A stretch of DNA of 62,847 nucleotides, the filler included, from Reclinomonas americana ATCC 50394 (lineage: Eukaryota), in assembly GCA_048213135.1 (NCBI GenBank). It is 5 parts of 3 records of this genome, joined end to end, with 100 filler letters (N's around TTAATTAATTAA, not from the genome) between each part and the next. Parts side by side here need not be neighbours in the genome. Positions count along the whole stretch, not along the records: positions 1 to 10,495 come from PS015471.1; positions 10,596 to 33,914 come from PS015471.1; positions 34,015 to 38,607 come from PS015471.1; positions 38,708 to 59,194 come from PS015472.1; 1 more part is not named here. One strand, written 5' to 3'. The first letter of the stretch is position 1. Each line of letters opens with the position of its first letter. Below the pieces are notes generated by a model that was given only the letters and a program-made list of their open reading frames with translations, did not search any database and was not told the origin of the DNA. Positions 31 through 57,846 of this stretch are shown in pieces. The position numbers were made by a program, and so were the translations under genes.

Positions 31-3000
31 GATGGTGAAAAGTACGTGGCGACGCACGACTTTGTGTCGGAGAGCGATCACGAGTTGTCGGTTCGAGACG
101 GGCAGCTGGTGCTGGTGCTGTCGGTCGAGGAGAACGGGTGGTGCTTGGGCCAGATTTATGAGGAGAAACCAGTCTCATCGCAACTGCAACCAATGGGCTG
201 GGTGCCGCTGTCGCACTTGCAGAGGGTTCACGTACCGGGCCCAGAGTCGCTGACACGAACGCCCCCCGCTCGCTTCGAGAGAGACTATCCACCCGCAGGC
301 GCCACTGCCGAGACCGTGAATCCGCTGTACGCGTCGCCAGCTGCCAAGATGCCCGACGTGAGCTTTGTGGCGCACGCTGACGACACGCCGGTAGTGCCTC
401 GGCGCTCCAGCGTCACTATCCGTCCGGATGCAGACGCCGCACCGATGGCTGCGGCAGCTGGTCGTCCGCGAGCGGGATCCGCCAGTGGTGGAGTGCCACC
501 GCTGATGCCCGCACTTCCGCAACTACCGCCGGCGCAGCCACAGCCACAGTCGCAGAACACGGGCACCGGTCGTCCTGCCAACATCTCGCCGGGAAGATCA
601 CGCGCCTCCACTGTCGGGGCGATGCCGAGCGCACTGAACACTGCGAAGTTCCTCGCGCATCCCGGTGCCTCGGGCATGCAGCAGCTATCGCTGCCTCTCC
701 CACCGCAGCTGCCGGTCAGAATTCCGGCACAGGGATCGCAGTCGAACCGCTCCTCTCGTGGTGTGTGCATCCGTGTGAAGCTCTGTGTGTGTGTTTTTTT
801 CTCGCTGCTCATGTGCTCTCTCGGCGCAGATTTGACTCCAGCGGCGCCCGCCTCACAAGGAGAAGCCGGCATGCTCAATCCAATCCCAACACCACCCGCA
901 ATGGCGCGTCCTGCCCCAGTGGCTCGACCGGCGCTCTCGACACGGAATGCACCCGGTGGCACCAACAATCGCGACTCGTTCCGCGAGTTGCCGCTGGACG
1001 AGGAACCAATCGGTAAAATACCCATTACTGTGGTAGTGTGTGTGGCTTGTGCGCTCACGTGTGGTGATTTGCATCTGCAGTCAATGGCGTGTCCACGGTT
1101 CAGCCGCCGTCGCAACGGTACGTTTGGAATCGTGTGTTCCATCTCCGCCCTCGTCACCGCTGCTCATCTTCTCTTCACATGCAGTGAGGGCGAACTGCGC
1201 AGTGTCAAGTACTGGAAGGACAGAAGCATGATGCTGGAGAATGGTGTGTGTGCTGACTAAAGGCATACTGTACCACCAACCCATGCTTTTGTCAACTGAT
1301 CGGTGACATGCAGAGGCCAACGAGCTGAAGCACAACAATGAGGTTCTGGGGAAGCGAGTCCAGGAACTGGAGCGCGATCAGTCCAATGTGCGTGCGAGGG
1401 ACGGTGCATTTGTTTCCCCATGTGAGGCACACGCTGACTGCGGGCGAAAAAATTCGTGTAGGTGGAGTTGGAGATTCACACATTGGCCTCGGAGCTGGAG
1501 AGGGAGCGCGAAACCTATCGGGAGCTGGAACAGAAGCTGGGTATGGGTTCGAATGGGCAAGACGGAGACAGCCCGTCAAAGCGACCATTCGACGCCGTCG
1601 CAGCCGATGTGTTGCGTTTCTCCCACGTTGAACCCTCGTGGAACGGGACTTGCTGCTGACGTGTGGATATACACACACACAGGCTCAAGGAGCAAGTGCA
1701 ACATCTGCAAGAGGAACTCATTCGTGCCAAGATGTCCAACGAGCAGCTGCAGTCGGAGAACGCGCACTTGCATGGGTGAGTGGTTGACAGTGTTGTGCAC
1801 ATGCACACTTCGATGGCGAACTCAATCAATGGTGTCGTGTCAGTCTGGTGCGCAAGTACAAGAAGGAGAACGCGGTGGCTAACGCAGCCGTGGCGGAGGC
1901 GTCTCAAGAAAAGACCAAACTGGAGCAGGAGGTCGAGAAGGACACAATGGCGAACGACCGCGTGCAGCGACTGACACGTGAGAACGCCCGTCTCAAGTCG
2001 TACGTCGACGACTTGATTCGTGAACGATCGAGTGAGTCGAGCTTGCTGCGCTCTTCACCCCCACGTGCTGCCTTCTGAATTTAACTTTTGTGTGTGTATG
2101 GTAGCACTGAGCCAGCGTGTGGACGAACTGGCGGAGAGACTAAAGGCAGCAGAGGCAAACAGGCCACCGGTTGTCGAGCCTGTTCGGACGGCGACGCGGA
2201 CTCAGTCGGTAGGGCCTCAGCAGAGTGGGGGAAGGGGAAGGGGAAGGAAGTGGGAAGGAGGTGAGGGAGAAGACCTCGCCCTTCTCCCTCGTTGTTGCCT
2301 TTCGCCCTCCCCTTCCTCCCCCTTCCTCCCTCCCTTTTCCCCTCTCCCTCCCTTTTCCCCACTCCCTCCCCCTTTCCCCCCTCCGTCCCCCTTTCCTCCA
2401 TCCCTTCCCCCTTCCCCCTTCTGACACGTCTTGTTTTTTCACAGCCACTCTCATTCTTGGCCGACGTCCCGCCAGCTCCTCGCATGCCATCGTTTTCTGT
2501 GTATCCATACGCACAGCGAGTGCCAGTAGAGTCAGCACCGTCACTGGAACCGGCTCCGTCTCGATTGTCTTCCGCTCTGCCGATGCCGATGATGACAGAT
2601 ATCAAGTTGTGTGCACGCGCTCCGTCATTACTCGTGTGCGCGAGTTGCTGACAGCTCTCCTATTTTCCTCAGTGCTGCACCTGCGACATTTGGCGGTCAC
2701 CACAGACACGGTGAGCCGCTTGACTCCATCTCTTCGGTGGCGGCAGCGGCACCGTCGAACCGAAATCCGTCGGCATACGAGCTTGACGCATTGGAGCGTC
2801 GGCTGCGTGACAGCCTGCGGCGAATGGAGGAATCGAACTCGACTCTTGTGAGTGGTGAACCCGGTGGCGGTGGTGGTGGTGGTGGGCGAACTACGGCGCC
2901 AACAGCAGGCGCCGAATTCCGCTCCTACTACCATCCGCGGTCGGCTGACCCCATTGGTGCGTCGCCCATGCTTCAACTCGACGTCAAGCGGCCGGCGATC

Positions 3001-3586
3001 GTCTCTGCTGCGGCCGATCTTCGCGCACGCACGAGTGCAGTCGATGGCTACTCGCCGGTATGTGTGGTGTGGCATGTTTCTCTGACACTCCACCACCCTT
3101 TAGCTCACCAACTTGCACACACAGGATCATGGTGGCGGCCGTGCCGATCCGTTCCGCTCGTTGCAACGCGAACGAGAACGCCTCCTGCAAGACCAACTGA
3201 TGTACCCGCTGCCGTCGGTGCTCGGCAACGGCCACATCCCTGTCGCCGGCGTGCGACCCACGACTCCCCCTTCGCCCGGACGCTCGACCAGTCCATACGA
3301 CGCACTGGTATCGCGCATACAAAACAAGCTGGAGGAGGTGAGTCGCGATCGCGGCGCACCAACCCGGACCGCCGGACGCAGTACGGTGCTGCGAAATCCA
3401 TTCGAGGCCACCCTGCCTCCAAGCCACCTGCCTCCAGCCTCCTCCTCGTCGTCGCGACCCTCCAGCCCCACCGAGTACGGCAGTCGACCGTCGCTGAACG
3501 GACATGCCTACGCCGGCAACTCCCGAAAGGCTCCTCCACACCGCAAACCGCCACCCCCACACTACGGCGTGTCGGGGTTGTACTGA
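31..3586 (+). CDS. SH3-domain, Pro-rich, coiled-coil protein (multi-exon, 5' part upstream of window)
   Basis: Exon after AG at 29-30 reads DGEKYVATHDFVSESDHELSVRDGQLVLVLSVEENGWCLG...GWVPLSHL (SH3). A Pro-rich region and coiled-coil exons follow, joined by about 11 GT-AG introns; stop TGA at 3584-3586. Confidence 0.8.
2227..2422. repeat. Polypurine (GGGAA-like) tract followed by long polypyrimidine (CCCTT-like) tract, intronic
   Basis: Visible directly inside the intron 2209-2444. Confidence 0.85.
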
Positions 3587-3706: not shown

Positions 3707-6381
3707 ATGAGCCACGACGACGGCTTCGAGGACCCATGTGCACTACAAGAGGATCGCAGACCTAGTCTACAGGTGCCTTGACACACGCACACACGCACAC
3801 ACTCACTCACTTCTCTGCTCCTCGGAGGAATTCTTTTTGTTGAGCTCACACACACATTGACATAGGTCTGTGTGGGCTCCGTGCCGCAAGCCTCTCCCGT
3901 CACCACACACTTCGTGTCACGCGAGGAGGAGGAGGCACACGAGAAGACGATGATGCCTGCTCATCCGCCAATCATTGATCATCAGCCTGACAGCGACGAT
4001 GATGATGCGGAAGAGGAGGAAGATGATGATGNNNNNNNNNNNNNNNNNNNNNNNNNNNNNNNNNNNNNNNNNNNNNNNNNNNNNNNNNNNNNNNNNNNNN
4101 NNNNNNNNNNNNNNNNNNNNGGAAGAAGAGTGGTGCGTCGTCGCTGACGCGCTGTGCATGCAGTCCGGTGTCGGTGTTGCCAGCAGAGTTGCACGTGACG
4201 GTGTGGGACGCGGTGAAACCACTGCAAGAGAATCACGTCTTTCTCGGGTACACGCGGTACAATGTTGCCGAGTTGCTCGAGAATCCTGGTGCACAAGCGC
4301 GGCAGTTCCCGCTGGGCACCAGCAAGCCGCGCGACAGTGCTGTCGGGACCCTCTCCCTCAGTCTGACGCTGAATTTTGCACATGTGAGTCCTCCTTTTGG
4401 TTTTGCTTGTTCATGCTTGGTGCATTTGCTGACCTGATTGTGTGCACAGTTGTACACTACGCCCGTGCCGGAAACGTCGTTCTTTGGCAGTCCTCTCGCG
4501 CGAGTCATGCAGCGCTCCGACCACACACGGCACTCGTTGCCGGTGCCCTTGAAACGCGCCCTGCTGTGCATCCGTTCACAAGGTGCGCGCAACAGCTGTG
4601 TGGCATTGGGAGTTGATGGGTGAGCTGAACAGAGTTGTATCCGACTCGGCAGGGTTGAATTTCGATGGCGTCTTCCGTGTTAGTGGCCTCCGCTCTCGTC
4701 TCGACACACTAAAGATGCGATTCGATCGCGGCGAGGACATCCACCTGCTCAGCCAGTCGGAGGTCGACATTCCCACTGTGGCCAGTCTCATCAAGCTCTA
4801 CTTCCGCGAGCTGCCAGAACCGATCGTGACATTCGATCAGTATCGCAAGGCGGTGCACATTGGTGGTGCGTCTCCTTCTCTCCTTTCTGTGCATTCGCTG
4901 TGCATTCTAGGACTCACGCGCGCGCGCGCGGGCGGACTGATGCAGAGCTTCCGGAGCACACGGATGCGGCGACGATTGTTGGTGTTCTGCGAGAGTTGAT
5001 CCACTCATTACCACCCATCAACATTCACCTGCTGCGCTGCACCTGTGCGCTGATGATGGAGGTGGCCGAGCACAGTGCGACAAATCGCATGCCACTCCAA
5101 AACCTCTCGATTGGTGCGTATCGCTGCGGTAAAAGTCAGCACTCTCTCTCCCCCTCTGCTCACCCACCGTAACGACGACAGTGTTCGGGCCGGCATTTTG
5201 TCGCAGCATGAGTGACTCACTGGAGACGGCACTCAGCGACACGAATTCCGCCAACCGGTGTGTGGCGCTGATTTTGCGACACTTTTCCGACCTGTTTGGC
5301 GTTGCGTTTTCGCCTGCTCGTGTATGAAACGAGGAGCGCAATCGCTGACTTGACTGCGCATTGACAGGACCACCGCTCCATTCTCGACATGATCGCCGGT
5401 GGTGAGTTTGGTGTCAAGCTTCATTGAGGTCACATCCAACTCACTTGCCGCTTCACAGAACCGGACGATCCCATTGTGCCACAGCGACCACCACCGGCCG
5501 ACCAGGATCTGTCGTTGTGGAATGTGGCTGTGTCCTCGTTCTCGTTGCTGCCACTGCCCGGAATGCCGCGTGTGGAATCGGAACCGGCGCCGGTGGCGGC
5601 AGAGCCCTCACCAGTTCAGGCAGTGGTGGATGTCGACGTGCACCACGACGACGATGCAGCAGTAGCTGTGGCTGCGGCGCCACCACCTGACGACTCTTCC
5701 AGCGACCATGCACTCCATGAGCCGGCTCCAGTGTCTGTGGATGATGATGTTGACGACAAAGGCGACGTCGATGATGCAGGTGGCGCAGACGATGTAGACC
5801 ACGCCGCAGCGGGTGAGGCAGGCGACGAAATCATTGACGACGACGGCGAGAATGGCGATGGTGCATGGACGGACTCGGGCAGCGAATCCGAGTCGTCGCC
5901 GTCGCCGCCACCACCGCCGCCAGCCGATGACGATGCCGTCAGCGACGATGATGCCTACGGTCGTGGTGCTGTTGACGAAAACGTAGAGCCGGCCGCTGCC
6001 GTTGGCGACAGCGAGTCATCGACTGCAGCGGCGGACGAGCCGGCTGCTGTGGTGGACGACGAAAGAAGGCCCGAGTCGATGGGCAGCCTGACGGCGGAGC
6101 TTGGCTCCGCGGGTGATCTCCTCGATGCCGCCGGTGCCTTCTCGCCCGTGTCTTCCGGATCTCCGTCATCGTCGCCGTCGTCGTCGGCAAGTGGTGGCGG
6201 TCGCGAACGTGCGCCCACCGACATGCTGTCGATTCGAGCACGAACAATGGCCGCCGCCTTCCGTTCCGGTAGTGTTCCCGGTGCCACCATCGCCGCCATG
6301 TTTGCTTCCACACTTGTCACGTCCCCCAAGAACGTCGACGGCGACGACGAGGAGGATGAGAAGAAGAAGAAGAAACCATAA
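3707..6381 (+). CDS. C2-domain RhoGAP protein with acidic low-complexity tail
   Basis: C2-like LHVTVWDAVK...FLGYTRYNVAELL...GTLSLSL. RhoGAP motifs FFGSPL, GLNFDGVFRVSG, DIPTVASLIKLYFRELPEPI, NRMPLQNLSIVFGPAF after splicing. Spans an N gap at 4032-4120. Confidence 0.88.
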
Positions 6382-6672: not shown

Positions 6673-7350
6673 TGCACACACGCGCATGTCGAGTTGAATT
6701 TCGATCGCTCTGCAGGTGGAAGGCACATGTGACCAGAATGGATACATCATTGCGTTGCTGGAGATCACACACACGGGTGCCGGCAAGATCGACGAGCTCT
6801 CCGGTGCGGTGTCTTTCCAAGTGGAGTATCAGGCGCTCATCTTCAGACCCGAGAAGGGTGAAGTGTGCGACGGCGTGTGTCTGTCTGTGTCACAGGTGCG
6901 GTGTCTCGCCACCCTTTCTTCCCCCCCCTCACGCGCGTGTGCTCATCTTCTGAGTCACCACACGCGCACACAGCATGCCATCATCGTGCAGGTCGGGCCT
7001 GCGCAGGTGTTGGTGCCGCCGCAAGTTGTGTCAACATTGATCGACTCCTTTCGTGTCTGTGACCTGCTGATGCTGACGTCTCTCTCTCTGTTCTCCACAG
7101 ATGATTCCCGAGGAGATGAAGTTTGACAACTCGCAGACGCCCATGTTTGCCAACGAGGATCGCTCACTGAAGATCACACGCGGCACCGAGCTGCGCATTC
7201 AGATTTTCGGCACCAAGTTCATGGGCACCAGCATTGTTGCGTGTCGACTGTCAGGTTGTGCTTTGTGTTTTTCGGGGGCTGACGCAGGCTGTCCATGCGC
7301 AGAACGCACTGGGATCCATTCAGGGTGACTACTTGGGTCCAATCGGGTGA
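6468..7350 (+). CDS. RPB7: RNA polymerase II subunit RPB7
   Basis: Six exons splice to MFYL|LKLKRRIQLQPKELG...VEGTC..NGYIIA...IFRPEKGEVCDG...GTELRIQIFG...ALGSIQGDYLGPIG*. Confidence 0.9.
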
Positions 7351-7411: not shown

Positions 7412-9538
7412 TTATCCGTCAATCAGCTGCTCGATTCTTCGCTCTCGTGCCGCCATGTCTTTTCTCTTGTCGACATCTCGGAAGTACCGTTCTGTCACGT
7501 GCTCAACAGCCGAGGTGAATACCCGCGCCGCATTCTGCCGCAGCTGCTGTCGCGGGGAGAGGTGAGTGGGCGACTGCGACAGTGGCGGTGGCGACGCCGT
7601 GTCTGGGCGATGCGGTGTCTCGGTGGCGTCGCCCGAGTTCTCCTGCGCCTGGAGGTGCGTCCACACCTCGAGGAGCTGCCGCTCCGACTCTTTCAGCGCC
7701 ACATCCACCAGTACGGGTTGAGGAACGAGCAGTTCTGCGCGGGCGGGGCAATGAGTAATGGGTGCGCCGCAGTGACGACAGTCACACGCTGACCAACCCG
7801 CAGCACTCGGCCAGTGTGTGGACATGCGCGGTGAGAGGCGAGGCGACGACCGATGGGTGCGTGGCGAGTGGGGAGAGCGTGGAGACTGCGGGGCACGCGC
7901 GGACATGGGTTGCGGCGCCGACTCCAAACGAGCCGACACCAACTCGGCATTTTCCTGCAAAGCAACCGAACTGTGAGCTGAGAAAAGCACACAAAAAGCG
8001 ATCGAAAGCAGAGCCGACCTTGACTTTGACGACCGCGGCCAAGTTCTCCAGTGACTCGCGTTGCTCAACCGACTGCGGCCGGCTGTCGTCGTCACTCAGC
8101 TTGTGCACCGTCGTGAGCGTCTGTCGCTCAATGCCCACTTGCAGAGCCTCGAGCTTGGAGCGCAAATGTGCCGACCACTGTGACGCAACCGCAGCAGCAG
8201 CATGGGAGTGTGTGAGTGAGACACAGAGAGAGAGAGATCGGAGACGAGTTCTTCATGTGAGTGAATGCGCACGTTTTGCGGGAGTGCCGCGTCTGGTCCT
8301 CCCACTGCACCCGCCGGTCCGAGCAATCGCAGATTGGTGGCACCTGGCGGAGGCGTTGGCACGGGCGTGGTGGCTGCCGACTGTGGCAAGCGTCAGAAGC
8401 CGCGATGGACGTGAGCAGAGTGAGAGACGCACGCACGCAACTGCACGTTGTGCTCGTGCACTATTCAGTCGACTGGCAGGCACCGACGGCAGCGACGGCG
8501 TGAGCGACATGGCCGACAGGGAGCCGGAGGGGTGGGGAGGTTCGTTTCCAGTGGCGTTGGCAGCTGCGCATGCGCGTCAGTCGTTGTGTATTTCCCAACC
8601 GCTCGCGATAGCTGAGACTCACCTCCAGTGTCGCCCCCTGGCTGCGCCGCATCGCCACCGGCAGAGTCGACCAGTGCCGGGCTCGGCTGTTCACGCGAGC
8701 GCACCTCTGGCGGAATTCTGCATCGCCCTCACTCATCAGTCTCATGGCCAACAACAAGCACGACGAACGAGCAACGCACAATGTCGGCATGGTCAGCGGC
8801 ACCTTTGCAGGCGACTTGGGTCTCTTTCTCGGCGTAATCACTGCCACAGAGGCGACAAGAGTGAGCAGCGCTGCTCAAACACAACACACACACTCACAGA
8901 GAGAAGAGAGTGCGCATCGCAACTCTCACGCTCCTGATCACGATACATCATGTCGGCCGCAGCCTCGGCCAGCAACGTATTGCGTGGCTCCAGCTCCGAC
9001 GCACGCGCAAAGCACCGGTGTGCCTCGCGGTACTGATACGACCGAGCATACGCCTGTGTGCGCAGAGTGAGGGGGAAAGAGTGATTGCGTGAGCAGTGTG
9101 TCACACGAGTGTGCTGACCTCGCCTCCCAACACCCAGCCCTCCACATCGTACGGAAGCAGACGCATCATGTTCTCGGCATCGAGACGCGCCGAACCCGAC
9201 AGGCCCAGCTTGAGATACGAACGTGCCCTCAGGCTCAACAGAAAACCATCAGCGGGCTCCACGACCAAACCCTGTCATCATCAAATGGCGAATGCGCGTG
9301 TGTGTGTGTGTGTGAGAAAGAGAGAGAGGTAGAGGAGAATGCGTGTGAGAGAGTGGCACCTTGGTGGCGAGGTCGGCCGCCTGCTGGTACTGCCCGCGCT
9401 CAAACAAATCAATGGCGCGTTGCGACAGCTGCTCGTGCTCACTGGCCGCTTTCCTGTGAACACCAGCCTGCAAGTCAGTCACTCACTACGCCACACTCTC
9501 TCTTTCACACACAGACACACGGACCTGCGCGAGGCCAT
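7412..9538 (-). CDS. TPR-repeat protein with low-complexity C-terminal half
   Basis: MASRR|KAASEHEQLSQRAIDLFERGQYQQAADLATK|GLVVEP...LRARSYLKLG...|AYARSYQYREAHRCFARASELEPRN gives three TPR-like units; intron phases are consistent. Confidence 0.75.
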
Positions 9539-10235: not shown

Positions 10236-13200
10236 ATGTCTGCGAAACACAGTCCGGAGACGTGGTGTGGCCAGGCGGAGGCCGTCCTCCGACAGATTGG
10301 AGAGCCGCTCTCCGTGACGCTCCTCTACGAGAAGATTGCCGAGCGGGGCGTGATGAAGACGAAAGCACGGTGAGTGGGTGGAGTCACGCAGACACACAGA
10401 CACACGCACATGCACACGCAGAGCAGACTGCGTGCATGTTTTGCAGTGTGTGATGTGAGCCGCCATGATTGTGTGTGCATGGTGTGTGTGTGTGTNNNNN
10501 NNNNNNNNNNNNNNNNNNNNNNNNNNNNNNNNNNNNNNNTTAATTAATTAANNNNNNNNNNNNNNNNNNNNNNNNNNNNNNNNNNNNNNNNNNNNGTGTG
10601 ATCATTGTGGTGTTACCGTTTGATGATGCGCGGTTGTGTAATAGACATGACAAGAGCAATGAGAATGGGCGAGTGAGCGAGAGAGTTGGTGAAGAGTGAG
10701 AGTGATCGTACACGAAATGTCATTTGGGCAGAAACCGTCTGTCGTGTTCGGAAATTCATGCAATCCATGACTGATTTTTTTGTTGCTCCCTCTCCTCATC
10801 CTCTGCAGGCATCCGGTCGAGGCTCTCAAGAAGGCCGTGTACAAGGAGACCACGCGAGTCGGTTCGGTGCTGGTGCAGCTCGATGATGGTCGGGTGTCAC
10901 TCACGGATTGGACACTGCAAGCGCTCTCGCCTGTTGCGTCCTCCCTCCGCTCCCCCCGTTGCATTTCCACCGCTTGCTAACACATACGTGCAGTCACGAG
11001 CTGGCACCAAGCGACCTCAAACACCGCTGGAGGGACTTGGTGAGGCGACAAGAGTCAGTGTGTGTGTTTCAATTTCTTCTCATCCTTTTTTCNNNNNNNN
11101 NNNNNNNNNNNNNNNNNNNNNNNNNNNNNNNNNNNNNNNNNNNNNNNNNNNNNNNNNNNNNNNNNNNNNNNNNNNNNNNNNNNNNNNNNNNNNNNNNNNN
11201 NNNNNNNNNNNNNNNNNNNNNNNNNNNNNNNNNNNNNNNNNNNNNNNNNNNNNNNNNNNNNNNNNNNNNNNNNNNNNNNNNNNNNNNNNNNNNNNNNNNN
11301 NNNNNNNNNNNNNNNNNNNNNNNNNNNNNNNNNNNNNNNNNNNNNNNNNNNNNNNNNNNNNNNNNNNNNNNNNNNNNNNNNNNNNNNNNNNNNNNNNNNN
11401 NNNNNNNNNNNNNNNNNNNNNNNNNNNNNNNNNNNNNNNNNNNNNNNNNNNNNNNNNNNNNNNNNNNNNNNNNNNNNNNNNNNNNNNNNNNNNNNNNNNN
11501 NNNNNNNNNNNNNNNNNNNNNNNNNNNNNNNNNNNNNNNNNNNNNNNNNNNNNNNNNNNNNNNNNNNNNNNNNNNNNNNNNNNNNNNNNNNNNNNNNNNN
11601 NNNNNNNNNNNNNNNNNNNNNNNNNNNNNNNNNNNNNNNNNNNNNNNNNNNNNNNNNNNNNNNNNNNNNNNNNNNNNNNNNNNNNNNNNNNNNNNNNNNN
11701 NTCCTCCTCATCTGCAGCCGAGATCTCACTACGAAAGAGACCACACACTGCTGCCGAGAAGCTCCAATCCCTTGTCGGTGTGGTAGCACCGCTTCTCCCG
11801 CCGCCAACACCGCCACCACCCCCTCCACCAGCCGCAGCGGCTGTCATTAGCTTGTCACCATCGTCCATGGCCTCGTCATCGTCACCGTCGCCGTCCTCAG
11901 CAGGTGGAGCCACAGCCACCAGCGTGTCACCGTCCAATGGCTCGCATGGACAGTTTGTGTCGCCACCTTCACGCAGCGCGCCACTCAAGCGCGCCTTCAA
12001 GGCCACGCACAAAATGTCTGGCAACGGCTCCTCGTCACCGACCAACGGCAGCAGCAGCAGCACAACCACCACCACTACCACAACAACAACTGTCGCCACC
12101 AGCAGCAGTTCTGCCGCCGCGGCGGCTGCGGCTGCTGCTGCTGCTGCTGGCAATGGCAGCAGTGCAGGAGCGTCGTCAAGGCGCGGCTCCATGATGGCGC
12201 CACCACCCATCATGACGGCACTACCGACAACGCCTCCCACTGGACCGCGTCCGCCGCCGGTTGAAATCTCCAAGGTTCGTTTCTATGTTGTTTCGTTGCC
12301 CTTGCATCATCGTGTATCTGACTTGCAATGCCGGCAGTGCTATGGTGTGGATGCCGGTGCGGTGGATGCGGAGAGCGAAAAGGCGGTCGACAACTCGCTG
12401 GACGCCGATGTGCGACTGGTGGTGGACAGTGGACGATCGGTGGTGTATGCGCACTCGGCACGGTTGACAGCCAGCTGCCCGTTCTTCGCCGCGCTGCTGA
12501 ACGAGCGCGCCAGCAAGCGGGCGGCAGCAGACAAGAAGGCAGCAGTCGCGATGCAAGACGACCGTGAGGGTGGCGATGCGCCGACTGTCACCGCGAGCAC
12601 AACCAATGTCGCCGACGCCGATGATATCGACTCGGCGAGCGTGCCGCGTGTGCTGTCACTGGAGGACGTGGAAATGGACGATCGCAATGCCCGTTCAAGT
12701 CCAAACACCACCAGCAAGTCGACGCTGCCGCCGCTGCCGCCCATGTCGGAGGCTGAATGTTGCGACTGAGTTTCTCTCTCCTTCAAAAGGAGTCTCTTGT
12801 GCGTTTAGCTCACACGCACACGTTTCTACGCAGTTGTGACGCTGGAAGTCGCCGGTGTCAGTCGCGAGGCCATGATTCGAACTCTGCAGTTCTTGTACAC
12901 GCAGCGTCTGCACGTCAGCACGAGCGTGGTGTTGCAGTTGGTGGCAGCTGCCCGCTCTCTGCATCTGCCGGTGATGCTGGCGCACTGCACGACATTCATG
13001 CACGAGAACCTGACGCCGCACCTGGCGCTGGCGTGCTGGGACTTGTCGCGAGCGGACCCGACGCTCTTCTCTGCCGCCTTCCTCGAGCACTGTGAACAGT
13101 TTGTGTCGCTGGAGATGAGCGCAGTGCTATCGGAGGACGCCTTTTTGCGTCTGTCGCCCGATTCGCTCCTGGCGTTCCTCGAGGCCTTCCACGAGTTCAT

Positions 13201-14679
13201 GTGCGAGAAGCCAGAGGAACTCTTTGTGAAGCTCGTGCAGTGGGGCAGGTGAGCGCTGGGAAGTCTTCGAAAGAAACAGTGGCGACTCTCTGCTCACTTC
13301 ACCTCCCCCCTCGCTCTCTCTGTGTGCGTGCACGCAGAATACATTTGCATCTGGCGCATGTGCCGCTGCAGGCGCTGCCGTCGGACGATCGCCGTACGCT
13401 TGCCGCACTCCTGGCACGGTTCATGGAGTTTGTGCAGTTCAACGAAATACCATTCCAGCACTTTGTGCAGCGCATTGAGCCGACGCAACTGGTGCCGCTG
13501 GAGGTGGCGCATGCGCGATACAAGCAGCACCTGTTTACTTCGAACGCGGAGCAGAGACTATCGCCTCGTGGTGCGTCGTCATCATCATTTCCGTTGCAGG
13601 AAGTTCAGTCGTTCGACTCACCTTTGCCCTTTTTTCCCTCTCTCTCAGCGGACCATCTCGAGCTGTTGAGTGCCGTGGCCACGTCAGACCCGCAGATGGA
13701 TCAGTGCTCCATTCGCTGGGAGATTGAGCAGTTTGCTCAGATCACCGAGACGTACATTTCGAGCCCGGTGTTTGTGGCCGGCAATCAGTTTTGGTGAGAA
13801 CCGATTTCCTCTCGTGACTCGCGCGCAATCATGGTCTCTCACAAACGCTGGTGGCTGGCGCGCAACAGGAGTCTCGTCTTGTATCCACGTGGCGATTCAG
13901 ATGCGGCTGGATTCATTTCGTTGTTTGTGCGGCGTGTGTCGGCGACCTCTGTCAATGCCAAGGTACTGTCGTGCACTCCGTTTTTTGTCTCTCTCTTTAC
14001 CTAAGAGGTCACTGACGCTGCTGCAGTCGTGGGCCACCTCGTCCGTCGCCGGCAATGTGTCGTTCCGGTCGCCCGACGAAGACTTTAGGGTTTGTAGTCT
14101 TGAGTGGTTTCACTGTTGCTGTCAACACTCTTTTTTGTTGGCCTGCTCACTCGTTCGCGCAGTCTGCCACGCCATCGCCACTGTCTCGCATGGACGACAG
14201 AGTTGCGTCTATATGCGCACGCACACGCACCATCATCGATGGCGACTGACGTGTTTCATTATTTTGCTTGTAGGGCACACCTACCAATGCTGACGAACGA
14301 ACGGCATCGCGGCCTGGCACGCCGGCGATGAGCATGACGGTCAAGCCCGGAAGTGAATGGGATCACGAGCAGGTTACACACATGGACCTGCGCTTCTCTG
14401 CGCATCCGGAGCCGCCTCATATGGACCCGCGTCGATGCAGTTGCGCAGTTGCCGCCGCCGCTGAAACAAACAACGCCTGTGCTCGTGACTCACGAGTTGG
14501 TGGTGACTGCAGAGTTGGTGTTCCGAAAAGATTGCAATGCGCTTGGATTCGGACCGTGCGTCGAGCGAGAGAAGCTGGTGGAGGCGTTGGGCGAGGGTGG
14601 GACTCTGTGGCTTCACCTACTGATGTGCACGCCGCTGACCTCCAGCCGCCGGATGGTGTCGCTAGCAGGCTTTGCGTGA
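10236..14679 (+). CDS. HARE-HTH + BTB/BACK + MATH domain protein
   Basis: TWCGQAEAVLRQIGEPLSVTLLYEKIAERGV...HPVEALKKAVY (HARE-HTH-like). DADVRLVVD..VYAHSARLTASCPFFAALL and LQFLYT (BTB). IRWEIEQF...SSPVFVAGNQFWSLVLYPRG..GFISLFV (MATH). Crosses two gaps, so a single gene is inferred. Confidence 0.7.
10540..10551. other. Artificial contig linker TTAATTAATTAA inside an N run
   Basis: Identical 12-mer with stops in all six frames, centred in N runs at four places. Confidence 0.95.
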
Positions 14680-33970: not shown

Positions 33971-34028
33971 NNNNNNNNNNNNNNNNNNNNNNNNNNNNNN
34001 NNNNNNNNNNNNNNCCCCCGTGTCGCAC

Positions 34029-44947: not shown

Positions 44948-45872
44948 TCACTTTGCGTGCATGGCCTTCCACTCCTGCACTTTGGGGTGCTCCGCCACGC
45001 GATTGACAATGCTGATGATGAGCGGGTAATCGTCGGCAATGGTCGCCGGCATGCCCTCGATGCGTCCGCCACGCAAATAGTTAATGTTTTGCGCCAGCCA
45101 CAAGTCAGCCACGGTCATGTTCTCGCCCACGGCCCACCCGCTGCGCGTGGGATTCGTCGAGAGGATCTGCTCGACTCCGCGCAGGCAGTTGGGCACGTCC
45201 ACGGTCACGGCGGTGGCCAGGCGCGTTTTGCGCACCTCGGGATCCTTCTCGTGCACCGCCGGTGAAATGCGGTACACAATGTCGTGCAGCGCGTCCAGCA
45301 GCTCATCCACGCGGAATGCCTCCATTCTGTGCACGAGAAGGTTAGCCGGAAGAGAGAGAGAGAGAGGGAGAGGAGAAGAGGAGAAGACGAAGAGAAGAGC
45401 GCGCGCAACGGATCCTCTGGGTACAAGTGGGCGAGACGAGCAGCAAAGCTGCACAAGAGGCGCGTTCAGTCAGAGAGGGCGGTGAGTGGAGAGACACTCG
45501 TACACAGAGGGGGGACGCACCGTGCCATTGGCACACACTGAGTGAACTTGACGCCGTCGACCTGCAGCTTGCTCACTCAGTCTCAAAATGTGCATTTTGC
45601 ATCTCTGACTCTCTCACACGCACAATCATCTCTGGCACTTGGCCGAAACGCAGTTCACCAGCGGCCTTGCGACGCGCAAACTCCTCAAACGAAATGCGTT
45701 CTGTGAAGTGCGTGTGTGTGTGTGTGTGTGATCGGAACAATGCACACAATGGTCGCCTGACAACAACGCGACGCATACCATCCTCAAACGGAATGTCGCC
45801 CAGGAAGAGCGCAAGGCGAGTGACCTCCACACGGCCGGGGAAGTCAAAGTATGTGACCTTGATTTCAGACAT
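44948..45872 (-). CDS. Glutathione S-transferase, sigma-like (copy 2, tandem paralog)
   Basis: IKVTYFDFPGRVEVTRL...FGQVPEMI|VDGVKFTQCVPMAR|FAARLAHLYP...GENMTVADL; four introns. Confidence 0.95.
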
Positions 45873-45989: not shown

Positions 45990-48898
45990 TCAGGCGGGGC
46001 CAGTGGGCGTGACCCACGTTCTCCACCCGTATCGTTCTGAATCGGTCTCGAAACCGGTAATGGTTCGACGGCAAAGCGGGCACTCGGCACCGCCACGCGC
46101 CGTCAGCATACCGGCGCACGAGTGGCACAGCACCTGGTGACTGCACGGCTGGAGANNNNNNNNNNNNNNNNNNNNNNNNNNNNNNNNNNNNNNNNNNNNN
46201 NNNNNNNNNNNNNNNNNNNNNNNNNNNNNNNNNNNNNNNNNNNNNNNNNNNNNNNNNNNNNNNNNNNNNNNNNNNNNNNNNNNNNNNNNNNNNNNNNNNN
46301 NNNNNNNNNNNNNNNNNNNNNNNNNNNNNNNNNNNNNNNNNNNNNNNNNNNNNNNNNNNNNNNNNCGGATCGGCGTAACGCAAATCGCCGGCAAACACGG
46401 TGCGAACAGTCTGCACACCACGCCACACAACAAAAAACATCAGTCACTGCGAGTCGGTGCTGTGTGCGAGCACACGTGACCTGATCCGCCTTGAACCAGT
46501 GCGCAATGCCGAGGTCGCCAACACACGCTCGTCCGGCGTCATCAAACAGGATGTTGTCGGGCTTGATGTCGCGATGAATCACTGAGCGTGTATAGTGGTG
46601 AGGTAATACTGCACAGACGGGTGCGAAAGGATGGTTGTCTTACCATTCTGTTGTGCAGGTTTGGCACGGATCAGCAAAAACGTGAGCAACAAGAAAAAAT
46701 CAAAACCTACGTGAAGATCGTGTCAAAATTGCACCTTGCTGCAGTGCACCACAGTGCGGTGGCGGTGAGCGAATAGCGACGTATACAGAGAAGAGAGAGA
46801 GTGTGTGCATCTCTCGTACCTATGAATCCCGGCCACCACTTCCGCACATCGCAAGATGCATGCAATGCGTTCCTCGATGGTCATGGGAGGCAGACTGCGC
46901 TCCTGGTAGTGCAATAGCCGGTGGCTCAGGTTGTGCTCACTGCGCCAGATTTGGTGAGTGTGCTCTACTTTGATCGACCAAGATGCAATAGCAGACTGCT
47001 ACACCTCATGGCCTCCAACACGATGCACCGGTCGGCGGTGTCCGACTCAGCGAAACCAATCATGCGCACCAGACCAGGGATGCACAACTTGGTCAACATC
47101 TCCACCTGCATCACGAGGGGGAGAATCGTCAGCGTGTGTCAAATCCCACATGCAACCAGGAGGAGGAGGAGGAGGAGATTGCGACGAAACTTCGGTGCCA
47201 AACGACGCAATGTTCCACGGAGAGGCGGCGTCAAACACTTTAACTACCACCGGCTGCTGGCCCCACATGCCGCGGTACACCGCCGCTTGCCCTCCCTCCG
47301 CCATGCGCTGTGAGAGGCCTCCTGTAATGGTCACAATCTGTGACCATGTGAACACCGTCGGCGACACTGCGTCGCATTTGCCCAGACTTGCGTGAGCCAA
47401 CAAAACAAGCGCGGAAACATGAACGGCGCACATACCCTGCTGATGCATCTGTTGCTGCAAAATGGCCAGATCACGACGAGCCGCTTCGGCACGCTCACAT
47501 TCCTCGGCGCGCTGCCGGTCCAGCTGCTCTAGCGCCGCCTGCATCTGCACCAGTTGTTCGTTGGCGGCGGCGAGCTCCTGCTGCACGAGCTGTGAGGAGC
47601 GCACGCCAGAGTCGACGGTGCCGTTCTTGTACTCGTGCAGGCGCGTGCGCAGCCGCTCATTCTCCGCCGTCAGCTCATCCACCTGCTTGCGCAGATGGTG
47701 CGCTTCGTCGGCGGCGTCATCGAGTTGTTCACGCAGATCAGCCGCCGACTCGGTGGCCACCGACAGCTGTAACCGGAGCGAGTCTTTCTCCTGGTAACTG
47801 TCCTCCAGCGCCAACTGCATCTCGGTGAGCAGGTCGCTGGAGACCGCCGCCGCCGCCGCCGCCCCCGCTACATCGGCATCATCGCGCCGAGCAGCTCGCG
47901 CCGCCGTGAGCGCCTGCTGTAATTGCACAATCTGCCAACCACGCGCGCGATCAGTGCCGACGACACACTCGCGTCACAACACATGTAGCACACGCACCAC
48001 GGCACGCTGTGCAGCCACCTCCTCGGCCAGCAACTCAGCGCGTCGCGAGGATGACGATGACGACGACGGCGACGCATCCGCTGCGGCTCGGCTCTGGATG
48101 ACAATGAGTTCATCCATCGGAACAACATACAGCTCGACAGACAGCGACACGCACCGGACTCTTGGCCGCACCCCCGGCCGCCGCGGACTTTTGTCGCGAT
48201 CCACTACCAGCACCTTGCGCTACGCAAAAGAGCAAAAAAAGCAGGCAGGCCGTGTGAGCATACGCGCCACTCAGGGGGAAGCAATCGAACAAAACCCACC
48301 CTGGCCCATCTTTCTTCGCAAGTACTCGACCACCGCCGTGCGCCCGTGCTTCTCGGCCGTATCCAACGCCGTCTTGCCCTTGTTGCTGCGCGCATTCAGC
48401 AGCGACACACCGTGATTACGCACGAGGTACTTGACAACATCGAGGTGGCCACACGAGGCCCCGAGATGCAACGCCGTCTTGCCCTTGTCGGTGGCGCGCA
48501 TCACCAGCTGCGGCCGCTCTCGACACAAGTACTCCACTGCAGCAGTGTGCCCATTGGAGGCCTGCCACCACACATACACCAGTGAGAACGCAAGCACACA
48601 GCGCAGTGAGAGAGACAGGCAGAAACACACCGCACGATGCAACGCTGTTTGGCTGTACTTGTCCATGCTGCGCCATCATCACACATGTGAACAACAGTGA
48701 GAGAAGACGCGATGAGTGGCACGACACGCACCTCTCCAGCACCGCCTTGCCATGCTCACGCGCCAGAGCTCGCAGCTGCTCAACGTTCCCATCGCGCCCA
48801 GCAACACGCACTTGCCGACCTCTACAAAACACACTGTTCAACACACACACACACACAGCATGATAGAGAGGGAGAGGAAGACGCAACACTGAGGCCAT
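45990..48898 (-). CDS. Ankyrin repeat - coiled coil - IRAK/RLK-like kinase - RING protein
   Basis: ANK: QTALHRA, GKTALHLGA, GKTALDTA. Kinase: EGGQAAVYRG, VVVK, IHRDIKPDNIL, GDLG, GDLRYADP. RING tail: PCSHQVLCHSCA..ECPLCR. The RING link crosses gap 46156-46365 and is inferred. Confidence 0.78.
46644..46647 (-). other. 4-nt micro-exon AATG of the kinase gene
   Basis: Flanked by CAACAG and GTAAGA; needed to restore HSKNVIHRD. Confidence 0.75.
46735..46738 (-). other. 4-nt micro-exon CAAG of the kinase gene
   Basis: Flanked by CTGCAG and GTGCAA; needed to restore HSKNVIHRD. Confidence 0.72.
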
Positions 48899-48941: not shown

Positions 48942-50123
48942 ATGGATAATGGATCTTCGTTACGCGCGACGCTCGCCTTTGTTCATTACACGTCTTTCTC
49001 TCTTCTCTCATGCTTTCTACAGGAATGTGCTGATTACAACTTGGAGACCATCATATCGACGAGCAATCGTCGCCACACGGGTTCGGGGAGACCGCGCGCA
49101 CGCAGGCGCTCAGCAATCTCCTGCTTCAACTCGGTGGGGAGCAGGCGCACAGGCCCGCACTCTTGCACGTGCTCGCCTTGTGTCACTGGTGCAGAGGACG
49201 AGGAGGAGGCAGCGTCATTGTCATTGTGCAGCTCGCGAAGGATCTCTGAGGCCGCTGGAAATGCTGCGCGCGCGTGTCTCTCAGTGAGTGAGTGAGTGTG
49301 TGTGAGTGAGACTGAGGGGAAGCGCAGTGTGACAGACCAAACGCTGGCCGCTCCTCTGTCATGCATTCGCCAGAGACAATCGCTGCGCACTGAGTCACTC
49401 AACATAACAATGGCGTGGGGTGAGCGCGCGTCTTCTCCCTTTCTCCACCTTCGCTTGCTCCACTCACTTGTGTGCGTGTGTCTGCGTGTGTGTGCAGATC
49501 GTCGCAACACGCGCAATCCATCGCTGTATGACACGCGCGCCCTGATGGACCCTCAGTTGCGAGCTTGTCTTCCACTGACTCACTCGTTGCACACTGTCTC
49601 ACACACACACACACCCTCGCAGAGCACCATATGTCGCACAGCAGCGCGACCGGTACACCAACATGTTTGATCCACGGTTGCGTTCCCACTCGCTTTCTCT
49701 CATGCTCTCTCGCTCACTCTTTTGCACTCTTGCAGGAGTCGCTACTTTGAGGACTTCCCGTACCGCGAGCGGGCGACGTACTCTCGCGGCTCGGCCCTCG
49801 GCAATCCCGATTTCGGCAACTTCCGCTTCCGCAAGGGCTACTCGGCCGAGCTCACGCTGCGCGACGGCGAAACGGCCATGTTGTCGGGCGACTCGCGCAG
49901 CAAGTCGTACCGCACGCACTACTCGCCCGAGTACCGCTCCTCGTTCTTCTACTCGTGGCTCGGCAAGCTGATGCGCCTGCTCTGGCTCGATCGCCTGTTC
50001 GGCTTGCATGTCGACACGGTCAAGCATGTCCGCACGCGATCGTATGTGTTTGTCACCGCGCGCATCCTCCCCGATGCTGCTACGGCCACAGCAGCGCCTT
50101 TGCAAGCCTCCGAAGTCTCATAA
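48942..50123 (+). CDS. Hypothetical protein (start uncertain)
   Basis: Phase-consistent exon chain ending SRYFEDFPYRERATYSRGSALGNPDFGNFRFRKGYS...EVS*. The last exon has a strong C/G third-position bias. Confidence 0.55.
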
Positions 50124-51724: not shown

Positions 51725-53223
51725 GTCGCGTCGGCAGCAGCAACAGCAGGCAGATGATGTGATGCAACTCTCATTCAATGTCGGTGATTATATTCCCGAG
51801 AGCCTGCGTGACATGGCGCGCACGTTGCCGACAGGCATGGATGTGGACTACGAATCTGCCATGCTCTCCGAAGCCATTCGCCTGTCCATCTTGGCGGCGC
51901 AAGAGGACGCTGCTCGTACCGAACAGCAGCAACAACAGCAACTGCAGCAACAACAACTGGCGGATGGCTCTGCGGAGCTGCAATTACAGTCGCCGCAATT
52001 GGAGTCGGAGAAGGCCGTGCGAGTGCGAAAGGAGGAAGAGGAAGACGACGAGGACGACGGTAGTCACATTTTTGGTGGTGACGCAGTTACGCGGGCAATT
52101 GCACAAAAACTGTCGTCGAGGGACGATGAATCGTTGACGCGGTTACGACGGGGCGATACTGGCGCGCCGAGCGACGAGCAGCACGTGGATGCAATGTTCT
52201 ATCTGCGAGCCGTCGCGGCGGCGCATCAGGCGGCAGAGGCCGCACGACACCCAGGTATGGATGGACCGCTGTCGTTCTTGCCGGAGATGTGCGCACGTGT
52301 TGACTGTCTTTCTTATGCAGCCGTGGTCACCATGCCGTCGGCATCGCCGCTTGCCGAGTCACCTCTTGATGCGGCCACAATGCCGGGATCCGCAGGCGCT
52401 CTTGCTGTTGCTGTTGCGTTTGCCTTGTGCGCGCGACAACCGTCTTTCCATTTCTCACACACTCTGCAGGAGAAGCTCGATGGTCCGGCTTATGGCGGCG
52501 ACGAGGCAGGCTCGTCGCTGTCGAATTCACCACGCGACAGCACGGCTCGCCTGCGGTCGGCCAGTCTGTCGTCGCAGTCGACCAAGCCGAAGGCCGGTCT
52601 GTTGGGCACCATGTCGCAGGAAATCACCTCGTCGTCGCCAACCTCGGAGGGTCTGACGACGGGTAAGGAGGATGGGGAGCACTCACCAAAGGGCGCGTCG
52701 GGCTTCACTGTGCCTGGTCTGGCCGACGATTTTGGTGTGGTCGACGAGGACATGGGCGATCGGGATGCGGTACGTGTGTATGTGCGTGTGCGTGCGCGTG
52801 TGCGATGCCGTAACTCACCGGTGTCATTCCGCCGAACAGCGCGAGGAGCTGCCTCTTAGTGGCCTGTTGATGTCGCAGAATCCGGCCGTGATGACTCTGC
52901 CTCCCACTGGTCGTCGGAGAAGTAGCAGTACGTCTCCGATTGCTGAGCGACGGACTGGAAAACTGGAAGAGGGTTCGCTTCACCGTTTCTTCTTTTTTCT
53001 CGTCGTATGGCTTCGCGTGCGCTCACCGTGTGTAACAGGTGTCGCCGCCTCGTCAGCATCTTCGTCAACCCCGCCGCCACCACCACCACCACTGCCACCC
53101 GGTGCCTTGCGGCCCAGTGCCAGTGTGGAAGGCGGTGCTGCTGCTCAAGGTAGCGACGACGAAGAGGAGGACGAGGAGGCCATTCTTGCGCTGGCAATCG
53201 CCATGTCGCTGCGTGAATCATGA
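50280..53223 (+). CDS. SIP5/DA2/GW2-like RING protein with C-terminal UIM-like motif
   Basis: MGTKGSK..PTGLYPSCPWDDKQVKKL..RVAPRWPG, ECPICYL|AYPALNTCTCCRQTLCTECYLQ...ECPFCK, MLSEAIRLS, EEAILALAIAMSLRES*. Confidence 0.88.
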
Positions 53224-55566: not shown

Positions 55567-57846
55567 TCATCGCTGTCCTTCAAACAGTCGACGTCGCTCG
55601 GCAACGCTCATACTCGAGAGGTCCCGCCCGTCGTCCACTGCCCGGTTCACACCGAAACGCGCTGGCAGACGAGCTGTGCCAAGGACACTCGTGTCGTGAG
55701 TTCACCCGTGCACGTGATAACCATCAGTGTGGCGCATACGCAACTGGAGACGTGCACCAGGTTCTGGATCGCGGCCTCGATTTCCGAAGGCCGATTTTCC
55801 TCTCTCGGCCACTCACGAGCGGGCACCGTCGGTCGCGTCAGCGATTGTTGGCGCAGGGACTCGCCGAACGAGATCACCGCCGAGAGGGAGGTGGGAAGTT
55901 GGTCCACGGCGTTGCGCACCGCGTTTGCCGTGTCGGCATCGTACAACTCGGGGACCATGGCGTCCGTGTACCGCACGATTTGACTGACATAATCCGGGTC
56001 CGGATGTGCGTCCACTCGGCGCGGTGGCGCCGGCAGGTCCTGCAGCAGGGGGTCGAGTGGCGGCACAAACTGACGTCGGCTGGCCGGCTGTGACGATGGT
56101 GCAGCAATCTCGGCAGCCGGTGGCGACACGGGCTCTTCGCCTCGGGCGGGGGAGAGGGCAGAGGGTGGATGTGAACTCGGCTGCAACGCCTCACACAGCC
56201 ACACCAGTTGGTACTCGAACATCGATCGCCGCAACTCGTTCCTCACATCCGCATCAGCTACGCAGACGGATCAGACGTGAAACGAGACAGCACCACAGCG
56301 AGGATCTTCACGCAACAGTCGTCGTCGCTGGGCGGCGCCGTATCCAACGGCAGAGACAGGCAGGTGGCCAGAGTCATCTGCTGCTCCGCTGCCGCGCTGC
56401 CGCTCACCAGTGACGCGCGCATGCGAATGTCCGCCGCCTCCGCGTGAGTTCGCATCAGCAGCGGAATGTGCCGTACGTCGGGGCAGGTGAGTGGCGCCAG
56501 CGGGATACGCACGCGCAACCCGTCGGCATCTTCGTCGATTGGCCCCGGCGAGTAAATTGACTCGACGTAATCGGCGACCCGCTGCGGTTCGCCAGTGACA
56601 GCATGCACAACTTCCAGCACAATGTGGGCGCGCGGATGGAACACGGATTGCAGACTGGAGATAATGTTCCAGAACGCCAAGCGCAGTTCGTCAAATGTAC
56701 GAATGTCAAAATGCCTGCCCCACGGAAACCGTCGGCGCACAAGCGACAAGTATGTGGCTCCCAGATCGGCAAACTCCATGTCGTAGAAGCCCATCGTGTA
56801 GACGGCAATCTCCTCCACTGGCATCTTCAGCTCTGCCACCATGCGATCCAACTGTCGCTCAAAGGAGCGCAACGACACTGCGTCGACACCGTCGTTCATG
56901 GTCGGGTGGCCGTCGGTGAGGAACAGAACCACGGGATGACGATTCTGCACGCAAAAGCGCACACATAATCCACAATGAGTGCATGTAATGCATACAGAGA
57001 AAGCAGTCGATGCCCTGACGCACCATGCCCGTCTCTCGGCGTCGACGGGCCGCCTGCTCACACGCATTCAGAATACCATTGTACAGCGCGTCGAGAAACG
57101 CGTCTGTGCTGTAGCCGGCGTCGGTGGGCAAGCTGCTCATCCAATCCAGCATCGACTGCACCGTGCGGAGCGTTTGCTCCCGGTGCACTTCGTCGGGCGA
57201 GTTCATCGACGAGAACGGCAGCACCTCCACCACTCGACCGGCATACGCAATCACCGTGGCGTCGTGCTTCCCGGCCTCCACAAACACTTGTTCTGTTGTT
57301 TCAGGCCGGCGTCTCATGAGGGATCGCGTGCGTTTCGCTGGCAGACAAAGGAGCGACAGAGAGAGAGACGCACACACACCGACATGATCGAGGAGGAAAA
57401 GGCGGAGTGTTTCAGTGACCATGTGCAGCTTGGTGTAGCCCTCGTCGGGCGTGGCATCGTACATGGATGCACTGCGATGCATGCGATCAACACGATGAGA
57501 GGAAGAGCGGGAGAGAGTGGGGGTGAGAAACGAAACCTCATGTCGAGCACAATCGCCATATCACAACCCTGGCGACTTGTGAATGAGCACACGCACACAC
57601 ACTCTCTCATATGCACAAGTGTTGCCACTCACTGGTGCCTCGTAGGCTACTGGCGCTGCTGCGCTGGCGCCCGCCGGAGCGTCGACAGTGAGTGTGATCA
57701 GATCGTGCACACGGCCACCGACGCGCGCGTGACGTATGTTCAGTCGAGCACTCTGTGTGTGTGCGTGCTCAGTCAGAGAGGGAGGAGAGGAGGAGAGAAG
57801 AGGTTGGAGGTGACGAGTGCTCGCAACACACATCCATCGTACTCAT
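55567..57846 (-). CDS. von Willebrand factor A (vWA) domain protein
   Basis: DMAIVLDMSASM (MIDAS DxSxS), VVLFLTDGHPT, VYTMGF; eight exons ending SVAERRRLFEGQR*. Confidence 0.82.

Follow-up and report, generated by a model that had tools for sequence, protein, structure and literature searches.

Gene content of the window and the two donor classes

We describe here a class of 5′ splice sites (donors) in a stretch of DNA from Reclinomonas americana ATCC 50394 that is 62,847 nt long and is referred to below as the window; all counts are those of this single window, not genome-wide counts. The window is eukaryotic and gene-dense, with a GC content of 48–60% per 4 kb and many short introns that carry a CT[GC]A[CT] branch motif and a CAG acceptor; its source, a compact eukaryote, has a large number of introns ∼70 nt in length. 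Pfam matches to single-exon translations include SH3, RhoGAP, BTB, ELO, TauE, two GSTs, PP2C, BING4CT, ankyrin, and CH domains. About 26% of the introns (40 of the 158 called, or 43 with three added by eye) begin with donors that we call shifted, and these were examined for the base that ends the preceding exon (position −1).

Only intron bases enter into the definition of the two donor classes: shifted donors have T at +3 and G at +6 but no G at +5, whereas unshifted donors have G at +5. Most shifted donors read GTTGCGT, the general form being GTT[G/T][C/T]G. GTTGCGT occurs 34 times on the two strands, from 1611 (+) to 56316 (−), which are also the limits of the interval given in an earlier note on this DNA (hereafter the original prediction); this compares with 15.42 ± 3.79 occurrences in 100 dinucleotide-preserving shuffles, none of which reaches 34. 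Among the 34 copies, 22 are curated donors, three are probable donors (10933, 40822, and 48887), four are without assignment (9806, 37754, 50570, and 55561), and five are not donors, 8189, 28899, 35383, and 35388 lying within other introns and 13489 antisense to an exon. The copies at 8189 and 28899 are 12 and 29 nt upstream of acceptors, and those at 35377–35388 (−) overlap one another (GTTGCGTTGCGT) within the intron of donor 35422.

The extra base at +3 is T in 36 of the 38 donors that have G at +6 and T at +7 without G at +5. A similar preference is seen in raw motifs followed by a 3′ signal, with 24 instances of GTTGCGT, as compared to three of GTGGCGT, one of GTCGCGT, and none of GTAGCGT. 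At +5 the shifted donors have C in 38 of 43 cases and A in one, whereas the equivalent +4 of unshifted donors has C in 33/84 and A in 28/84 (p=6e-8 for C, p=3e-5 for A); likewise, the raw motif GTTGAGT has only four copies in the window against 34 of GTTGCGT. Unshifted donors use GTGAG (26) and GTGCG (28) about equally. Their +3 is dominated by G (60/84), A being rare (5/84, four AT and one AA); as a working consensus we use GTNNGT for them in place of GTRAGT. For 24 predicted donors, the sequence is GTGTGT and lies in a GT repeat (785, 1244, 6644, 32069, 34457, 51698, 58779, and others); only 7/24 have G at −1, a low share which suggests that many of them are misplaced, and donors of this type were left out of the stricter tests.

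Introns were predicted with a purpose-written Viterbi gene finder, which combines codon log-odds, explicit GT..AG introns of 40–450 nt, and scores for the branch and the acceptor. The donor score takes in intron positions +3 to +7 and no exon base, so a donor call cannot be influenced by the −1 base. In a donor-neutral start of the gene finder, TGCGT was already the commonest +3 to +7 word (24/142 introns). A pass in which donors were scored only as GT misplaced many of them, e.g. at 1412 instead of 1388, and a 5-mer donor model was dropped for reinforcing its own singletons; a two-component position model was fitted instead, which together with opposite-strand masking gave 31 gene models with 157 introns. 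Manual corrections, made by reading every shifted-type call and from protein evidence, brought this to 158 introns plus three probable shifted introns found by eye. The protein evidence includes P0001, a database protein of 208 aa labelled as an open reading frame derived from an expressed sequence tag, i.e. transcript-derived. The corrections rejected donors 35388 and 35748 in favor of 35422 and 35685, replaced 32744 with 32729, dropped candidate donor 50570 from the models, and, in the second GST gene, replaced 45772 and 45576 with 45778, 45623, and 45520.

The exon-final base in shifted and unshifted donors

Shifted donors and an exon-final G are nearly mutually exclusive in the window, as the original prediction held, and the contrast is real and far beyond chance. 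The last exon base of the 40 called shifted donors is A in 19, T in 12, C in 6, and G in 3 (T rises to 15 when the three introns added by eye are included, n=43), whereas it is G in 70 of 108 unshifted donors, or in 63 of 84 once those of the GTGTGT type are omitted. It is also G in nine of the ten donors that belong to neither class. Thus, 82 donors in all follow a G, and only three of them are shifted. The Fisher test for G against non-G gives p=1.2e-10 with all donors of the two classes, p=5.4e-13 without the GTGTGT type, p=7.7e-14 in a high-confidence subset (length ≤150 nt, branch motif present, YAG acceptor; 2/37 shifted against 50/63 unshifted), and p=2.1e-7 with strict motifs (1/22 for GTTGCGT against 29/41 for GT[GA][CA]GT). 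The contrast persists under every filter, and it also appears in the raw motif list, for which no gene model is needed; in an earlier version of the gene models it was seen in each intron phase.

In what follows, a donor is written after the end of its exon (in lower case) and a slash, and its basis is the curated gene model unless stated otherwise. Only one accepted GTTGCGT donor follows G, acg/GTTGCGT (intron 49677–49735, +), and it was already singled out in the original prediction, which counted A 19, T 13, C 7, and G 1 among 40 listed donors. Our count reproduces the A exactly and differs slightly in the rest; the additional G's are two AG/GTTTCG donors that had been set aside near 41945 and 57536. 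Both exist as described, aag/GTTTCGT in a 164-nt intron whose extent is less sure (41780–41943, −) and gag/GTTTCGT (57472–57536, −). On the unshifted side, the three donors named earlier as departing from the rule are real and are preceded by T: aat/GTGCGT (1388–1461, +), cat/GTGAGT (4384–4449, +), and att/GTGCGT (45562–45623, −), the last of which was missed by the gene finder and is supported by reading against P0001.

Relative to codon-position composition, the last exon base of shifted donors is enriched in A (19, against 6.7 expected, p=6.5e-6) and depleted in G (3, against 13.2 expected, p=2.8e-4), while that of unshifted donors is strongly enriched in G (61, against 28.5 expected, p=3e-13). 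A at −1 is thus favored among shifted donors as a whole, in keeping with the original prediction, but this does not extend to GTTGCGT alone, where T and not A is commonest (T 12, A 7, C 5, and G 1 of 25); A is more frequent before the weaker, non-GTTGCGT motifs (12/18) than before GTTGCGT (7/25, p=0.016). The −1 composition of shifted donors resembles that found one base farther upstream in the other class, the −2 of unshifted donors (A 22, C 19, G 12, and T 29; chi-square p=0.13), and is quite unlike their −1 (p=4.7e-11). The −2 of unshifted donors is itself poor in G (12, against 24.9 expected, p=0.0016). A proposed mimicry of CAG by an exon-final CA is weak: CA is the commonest final pair of shifted donors (8/40), but the −2 composition of the unshifted donors contains no CAG consensus for it to mimic.

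Synonymous codons at shifted donors

Shifted donors that fall between codons show whether G could have been supplied by the coding sequence. There are 19 phase-0 shifted donors, and a synonymous G-ending codon is available in 14; from the amino acids at these donors and the codon usage of the window, 7.6 G's would be expected, and one is seen. CAA is used three times at these positions even though CAG is preferred (CAG 286 and CAA 129 in the window; the corresponding figures are 609 for GAG and 143 for GAA). The remaining five end in codons for Ile, Phe, Asn, or His, which have no synonymous G form. Intron phases are similar in the two classes, 19/9/12 for shifted and 34/30/16 for unshifted introns. 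G at the end of these exons is avoided, not unavailable.

Junction evidence and nature of the shifted introns

For cleavage in front of the GT of a shifted donor there is protein evidence, independent of the gene finder, at five of the 43 junctions, of which 23558, 44388, and 44092 are confirmed and 32729 and 45409 supported; the remaining 38 were placed from splice signals and the reading frame. In the ELO gene, the exon before aac/GTTGCGT (23558–23632, +) ends at position 148 of the Pfam ELO profile and the next exon begins at 149, a continuity that a GTT/GC boundary would break. The other shifted intron of this gene, gct/GTTGCGT (23125–23206, +), has flanking exons that match the profile to 58 and from 64, with a consistent frame. 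In the DUF1764 gene, the exon that runs to tga/GTTGCGA (32658–32729, −) matches profile positions 67–94 with an E-value of 1.3e-8, as compared to positions 67–89 and 6e-4 for the rival donor at 32744.

Two GST paralogues lie in tandem on the minus strand (43619–44636 and 44951–45872), with ∼44% identity in the C-terminal domain. The spliced product of the first aligns to P0001 without gaps, with 201 of 208 residues identical, across both of its shifted introns, cac/GTTGCGT (44318–44388, −; LH/VNG as in P0001) and ctt/GTTGCGT (44016–44092, −). At either junction, a GTT/GC boundary, as for a GC-AG intron, gives one residue more and a lower score against P0001 (1020 rather than 1028 at 44388). 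The same gene contains an intron of 75 nt, aag/GTGCATAC...CAG (43736–43810, −), that is in frame and stop-free, has neither G at +5 nor G at +6, and was found through P0001 alone. In the second paralogue, 37 residues stand opposite 37 of P0001 across the junction at tcc/GTTGCGC (45327–45409, −) when the sequence is read by eye. Intron positions differ between the paralogues, with a single shared exception, the first intron (after FED, phase 1). Homologue searches were also made for other exons: none was found for exon 17591–18034 (among longer proteins) or for exon 55746–56255, and exon 12338–12757 gave one distant match among representatives, which was not useful.

Apart from the donor, shifted and unshifted introns are alike: both have a median length of 71 nt, a GC content of ∼0.55, and the same branch motifs (CTCAC and CTGAC) and acceptors. 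The two kinds of donor are interleaved in the same genes, and shifted ones are present in 20 of the 29 intron-bearing gene models. In everything but the donor, the shifted introns are GT-AG introns of the ordinary kind. An introner family was considered and rejected, since all-against-all blastn of the 161 introns, with donors removed, gave only low-complexity repeats among the first 15 of 740 matches. U12-type introns are characterized by an [AG]TATCCTT donor and a tightly spaced TCCTTAAC branch site. No such donor occurs among the shifted ones, whose branch, acceptor, length, and GC content are as in the unshifted introns.

Proposed U1 register and alternative explanations

The observations are best accounted for if shifted donors are bound by U1 in a register displaced by one base (+1), possibly together with a divergent U1, a reading to which we give a probability of roughly 55%. 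The register would be set by the position of the conserved G that is the usual partner of U1 C4. With this G at +5 (GTNNG), U1 would take its usual register, in which the exon-final base faces C9 and is G in ∼65–75% of cases. With the G at +6, after an extra T, the whole U1 helix would move one base into the intron, giving the pairs G+1:C9, U+3:A7, G+6:C4, and U+7:A3, with U+2 facing C8 unpaired. Cleavage would stay in front of GT, and the exon-final base would come to occupy the usual −2 slot opposite U10. Because of that position opposite U10, it would be expected to lose its preference for G and to become A/T-rich and G-poor like −2. If an A−1:U10 pair compensates for a weak intron motif, A should be more frequent at such donors, as it is, and the near-constant T at +3 is what a pair with A7 would require. 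The proposal that the intron's G+1 takes over the pairing normally made by the exon's G−1 is thus borne out by the base composition, although the interpretation that accompanied it is, as a whole, only partly supported. U1 would presumably be the reader of these donors, with a standard or near-standard 5′ end and without the use of a bulge.

Pairing was computed against the standard U1 5′ end AUACUUACCUG (the standard U1 start being ACUUACCUG), from which the organism's own U1 may differ; an Rfam scan of the whole window returned no family, so the U1 gene does not lie within it. On average, shifted donors can form 4.2 pairs in the canonical register, 6.5 in the shifted register, and 6.4 with a bulge, the gain from the shift being ∼2.4. 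G at −1 would add ∼3 kcal/mol, but only in the canonical or bulged register.

Several results weigh against the shifted register. Its gain in pairs, which the original prediction had anticipated, is barely matched in energy: the mean nearest-neighbor energies of shifted donors are −0.26 (canonical), −0.73 (shifted), and −0.62 (bulged) kcal/mol, with medians of 0, as compared to −6.06 for unshifted donors, so the gain is ≤0.5 kcal/mol and shift and bulge are energetically indistinguishable. With standard U1, the shifted donor that pairs best should be GUUGAGU (−2.7 to −4.0 kcal/mol), yet A is found at +5 in a single case, and here the simple model fails. T and C together account for 18–21 of the 40–43 exon-final bases and are unable to pair with U10. 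G is in any case scarce before GTT, at 237 of 1407 sites in the window (17%) and 14% within predicted coding sequence, which leaves only a modest G deficit in the raw motif list (3/39); because the NGTT background is itself poor in G, the strongest part of the signal is the enrichment of G in unshifted donors together with its loss in shifted ones. Finally, most introns rest on ab initio models with known errors, such as the second GST gene, which was wrong in two introns, and the in-frame 75-nt intron at 43810, which was missed.

The energies alone would equally allow a bulged register, in which G+1:C8 and U+2:A7 are kept, one U of +2/+3 is bulged, and pairing resumes over G+4 to U+7; the scarcity of G at −1 would then have a separate cause. 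A bulge in a run of two U's has precedent, with 68 human sites predicted to use one, of which 54 remain after curation, according to Table 3 of PMC4856993, and the two AG/GTTTCG donors at 41943 and 57536 look to be of this kind. In a bulged register, however, a G−1:C9 pair would stack on G+1:C8 and lower the energy to −3.76 from −0.62 kcal/mol, so that G at −1 should be favored, whereas it is found in 3/43 shifted donors, as compared to 63/84 unshifted ones, and in one synonymous position where 7.6 were expected. Nor need the bulged base be T, which it is in nearly every donor. We consider a bulge unlikely for the class. A further possibility, which can coexist with the shift and which we hold to be tentative and rather improbable, is a divergent or second U1, either with G-C at positions 5–6 (ACGCAC) in place of AUACUUACCUG or as a U1-like RNA complementary to GUUGCGU. 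It would explain the C at +5 of shifted donors and the near-lack of A there, as well as the rarity of A at +3 of unshifted donors. When 16 hypothetical pairs of bases at positions 5–6 were compared, GC gave the best mean for both classes (−8.28 for unshifted donors; −6.25 shifted, −5.01 bulged, and −0.27 canonical for shifted donors), as compared to −6.02 and −0.73 (shifted register) for the standard UU, but this ranking is circular, having been fitted to these same donors. Unshifted donors, moreover, have no preference for C in GTGCG over GTGAG, and few eukaryotic RNA sequences are as conserved as the U1 5′ end.

Two other explanations were considered. The original prediction saw the shift as a rescue of introns whose exons cannot supply a G, so that shifted donors would arise or persist where the coding sequence rules it out. 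The lack of G at −1 and the five phase-0 codons without a synonymous G form are compatible with such a constraint, but the other 14 phase-0 donors could take a G-ending codon, often the preferred one, and the two classes have similar phase make-up; the window largely contradicts this reading, which we reject as highly improbable. It is also very unlikely, in our estimate, that there is no register effect at all and that the contrast stems from an artefact of intron calling, from a context in which GGTT is rare, or from contacts other than U1 (U5 loop 1, U6). Errors in the intron models and the low share of G before GTT lend this some weight, as does the view, expressed in the part of PMC8283771 concerned, that the association of −1G with +5G is not explained by U1 alone. 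But context bias cannot give unshifted donors 65–75% G, nor shifted donors an excess of A of nearly threefold (19/40, against 6.7), while the survival of the contrast under every filter and in the model-free motif list, and the five junctions supported independently of the gene finder, argue against an artefact.

Further shifted introns and other features of the window

The shifted introns not described above are distributed along the window on both strands. In the first 10 kb, on the plus strand, are tgt/GTTGCGT (1611–1682, with branch CTGAC and a CAG acceptor), two caa/GTTGTGT introns (2606–2672 and 7025–7100), ggc/GTTGCGT in the RhoGAP gene (5301–5367), and att/GTTGCGT (7236–7302); gca/GTTGCGT (8381–8441) and aga/GTTGCGA (8841–8923) are on the minus strand. 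The probable cct/GTTGCGT intron at 10933–10993 (+), which has N gaps on either side, was found by eye and is not in the gene-finder output. It is followed on the same strand by gtt/GTTTCGT (12290–12337), which is only 48 nt long and, with read-through open, less sure, by aat/GTTGCGA in the BTB gene (12759–12833), and by aga/GTTGCGT (14202–14273) and gca/GTTGCGC (14440–14512).

A run of minus-strand introns comes next, beginning with caa/GTTGAGT (15389–15466), the only accepted donor of the GAGT form, and continuing with aac/GTTGCGT (16958–17032), tca/GTTGTGT (17130–17213; read-through open, less sure), ttt/GTTGCGT (17434–17493), ttt/GTTTCGT (17523–17590), aca/GTTTCGC (20447–20522), and aga/GTTGTGT in the formyltransferase gene (21786–21850). 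Beyond the ELO gene, the same strand has tga/GTTGCGT in a TMEM260-like gene (25239–25318), where the branch motif was not found, caa/GTTGCGT in the CH-domain gene (30356–30421), and cta/GTTGCGT (32815–32892), while gca/GTTTCGT (34220–34277) is on the plus strand.

The SWIB gene has ctc/GTTGCGT (40001–40065, −), and three shifted introns fall in the TauE gene, aca/GTTGCGT (41243–41304, −), att/GTTGCGT (41530–41605, −), and ttt/GTTGCGT (42260–42324, −). The two other probable introns found by eye, att/GTTGCGT (40728–40822, −) and agt/GTTGCGT (48834–48887, −), have uncertain acceptors. The list is completed by gaa/GTTTCGT (47106–47190, −), tca/GTTGCGA (49556–49622, +), gct/GTTGCGT (52413–52469, +; read-through open), cca/GTTGCGT (55674–55744, −), and act/GTTGCGT (56258–56316, −).

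At 2213–2440, a pyrimidine-rich mirror (CCCTTCC...) comes immediately after the purine-rich run (GGAAGGGGAAGG...) that it reflects; both sit inside a predicted 444-nt 'intron' from 2032, and so long an intron is doubtful. N accounts for 2,803 nt of the window in 15 runs. Four intervals (10496–10595, 33915–34014, 38608–38707, and 59195–59294) have the identical pattern of 44 N, 12 bases, and 44 N, which looks like a masking or scaffolding artefact more than ordinary gaps.

Comparison with known systems

In open-access papers and preprints, to which the literature search was confined, no species with a donor class of this kind came to light. Within a single genome, U12-type and introner-like introns resemble the shifted introns in forming a distinct donor class. 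The human class of +1 shifted sites is reportedly a rarity, comprising a few dozen sites, as compared to 40 of the 158 called introns here. In the human case, the shifted register (Roca and Krainer, 2009) and the bulged register (Roca et al., 2012), as described in parts of PMC4856993 and PMC9311317, were established by laborious suppressor experiments for a small fraction of sites. A genome in which about a quarter of the donors are of shifted type, with a clean signature on the exon side, would provide a natural large sample, serving the questions of how U1 chooses its register, why G at −1 would be harmful in a shifted context, and how free the U1 5′ end is to evolve. Scores from gene finders trained on GTNNGT and G at −1 would be wrong for about a quarter of the introns in such a genome.

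A bolder reading, which we think doubtful, is that this lineage has re-tuned 5′ splice-site recognition, such that U1 is displaced by one base on about a quarter of its introns and either has ACGCAC, in which G-C stands in for the pseudouridine pair universal at positions 5–6, or is accompanied by a second U1. Were that true, GUUGCGU would be a strong site, U1 would be drawn by a G at −1 into an unproductive register, and this would be the first genome with the shifted register as a main mode of splicing and not a curiosity.

According to the portion of PMC8283771 that treats them, the exon-end G and the +5 G are the two most conserved and mutually dependent positions of human 5′ splice sites. 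Unshifted donors rely on the same two bases, whereas shifted donors lack both and make sense only if renumbered by one base. The +1 register itself is experimentally established for rare human sites, with the model ACA/GUCAAGUAUA given as 'Shifted +1' in the relevant section of Tan et al. (2016, PMC4856993). As those sites are described there, GU at +1/+2 is kept while all U1 pairs move by one base, CA precedes GU in the model site, C4 and A3 are paired to a G and a U farther downstream, and the exon-final base lies in the −2 slot, all as proposed for the shifted donors. The human model, however, has AAGU after the extra base, where the shifted donors have GCGU with A nearly excluded, and it has been proven by experiment, whereas for the donors of the window the register is predicted. 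The avoidance of G at −1 also sets the shifted donors apart from the human sites. The human bulge +2/+3 sites in the same source share with shifted donors a GU, an extra U, and the usual core, with similar pairing potential, but their register keeps G−1:C9, whereas G is found at −1 in only 3/43 of the shifted donors. By analogy, then, the mechanism of the shifted donors appears to be nearest to that of the human shifted-register sites and to differ from that of the bulge +2/+3 sites.

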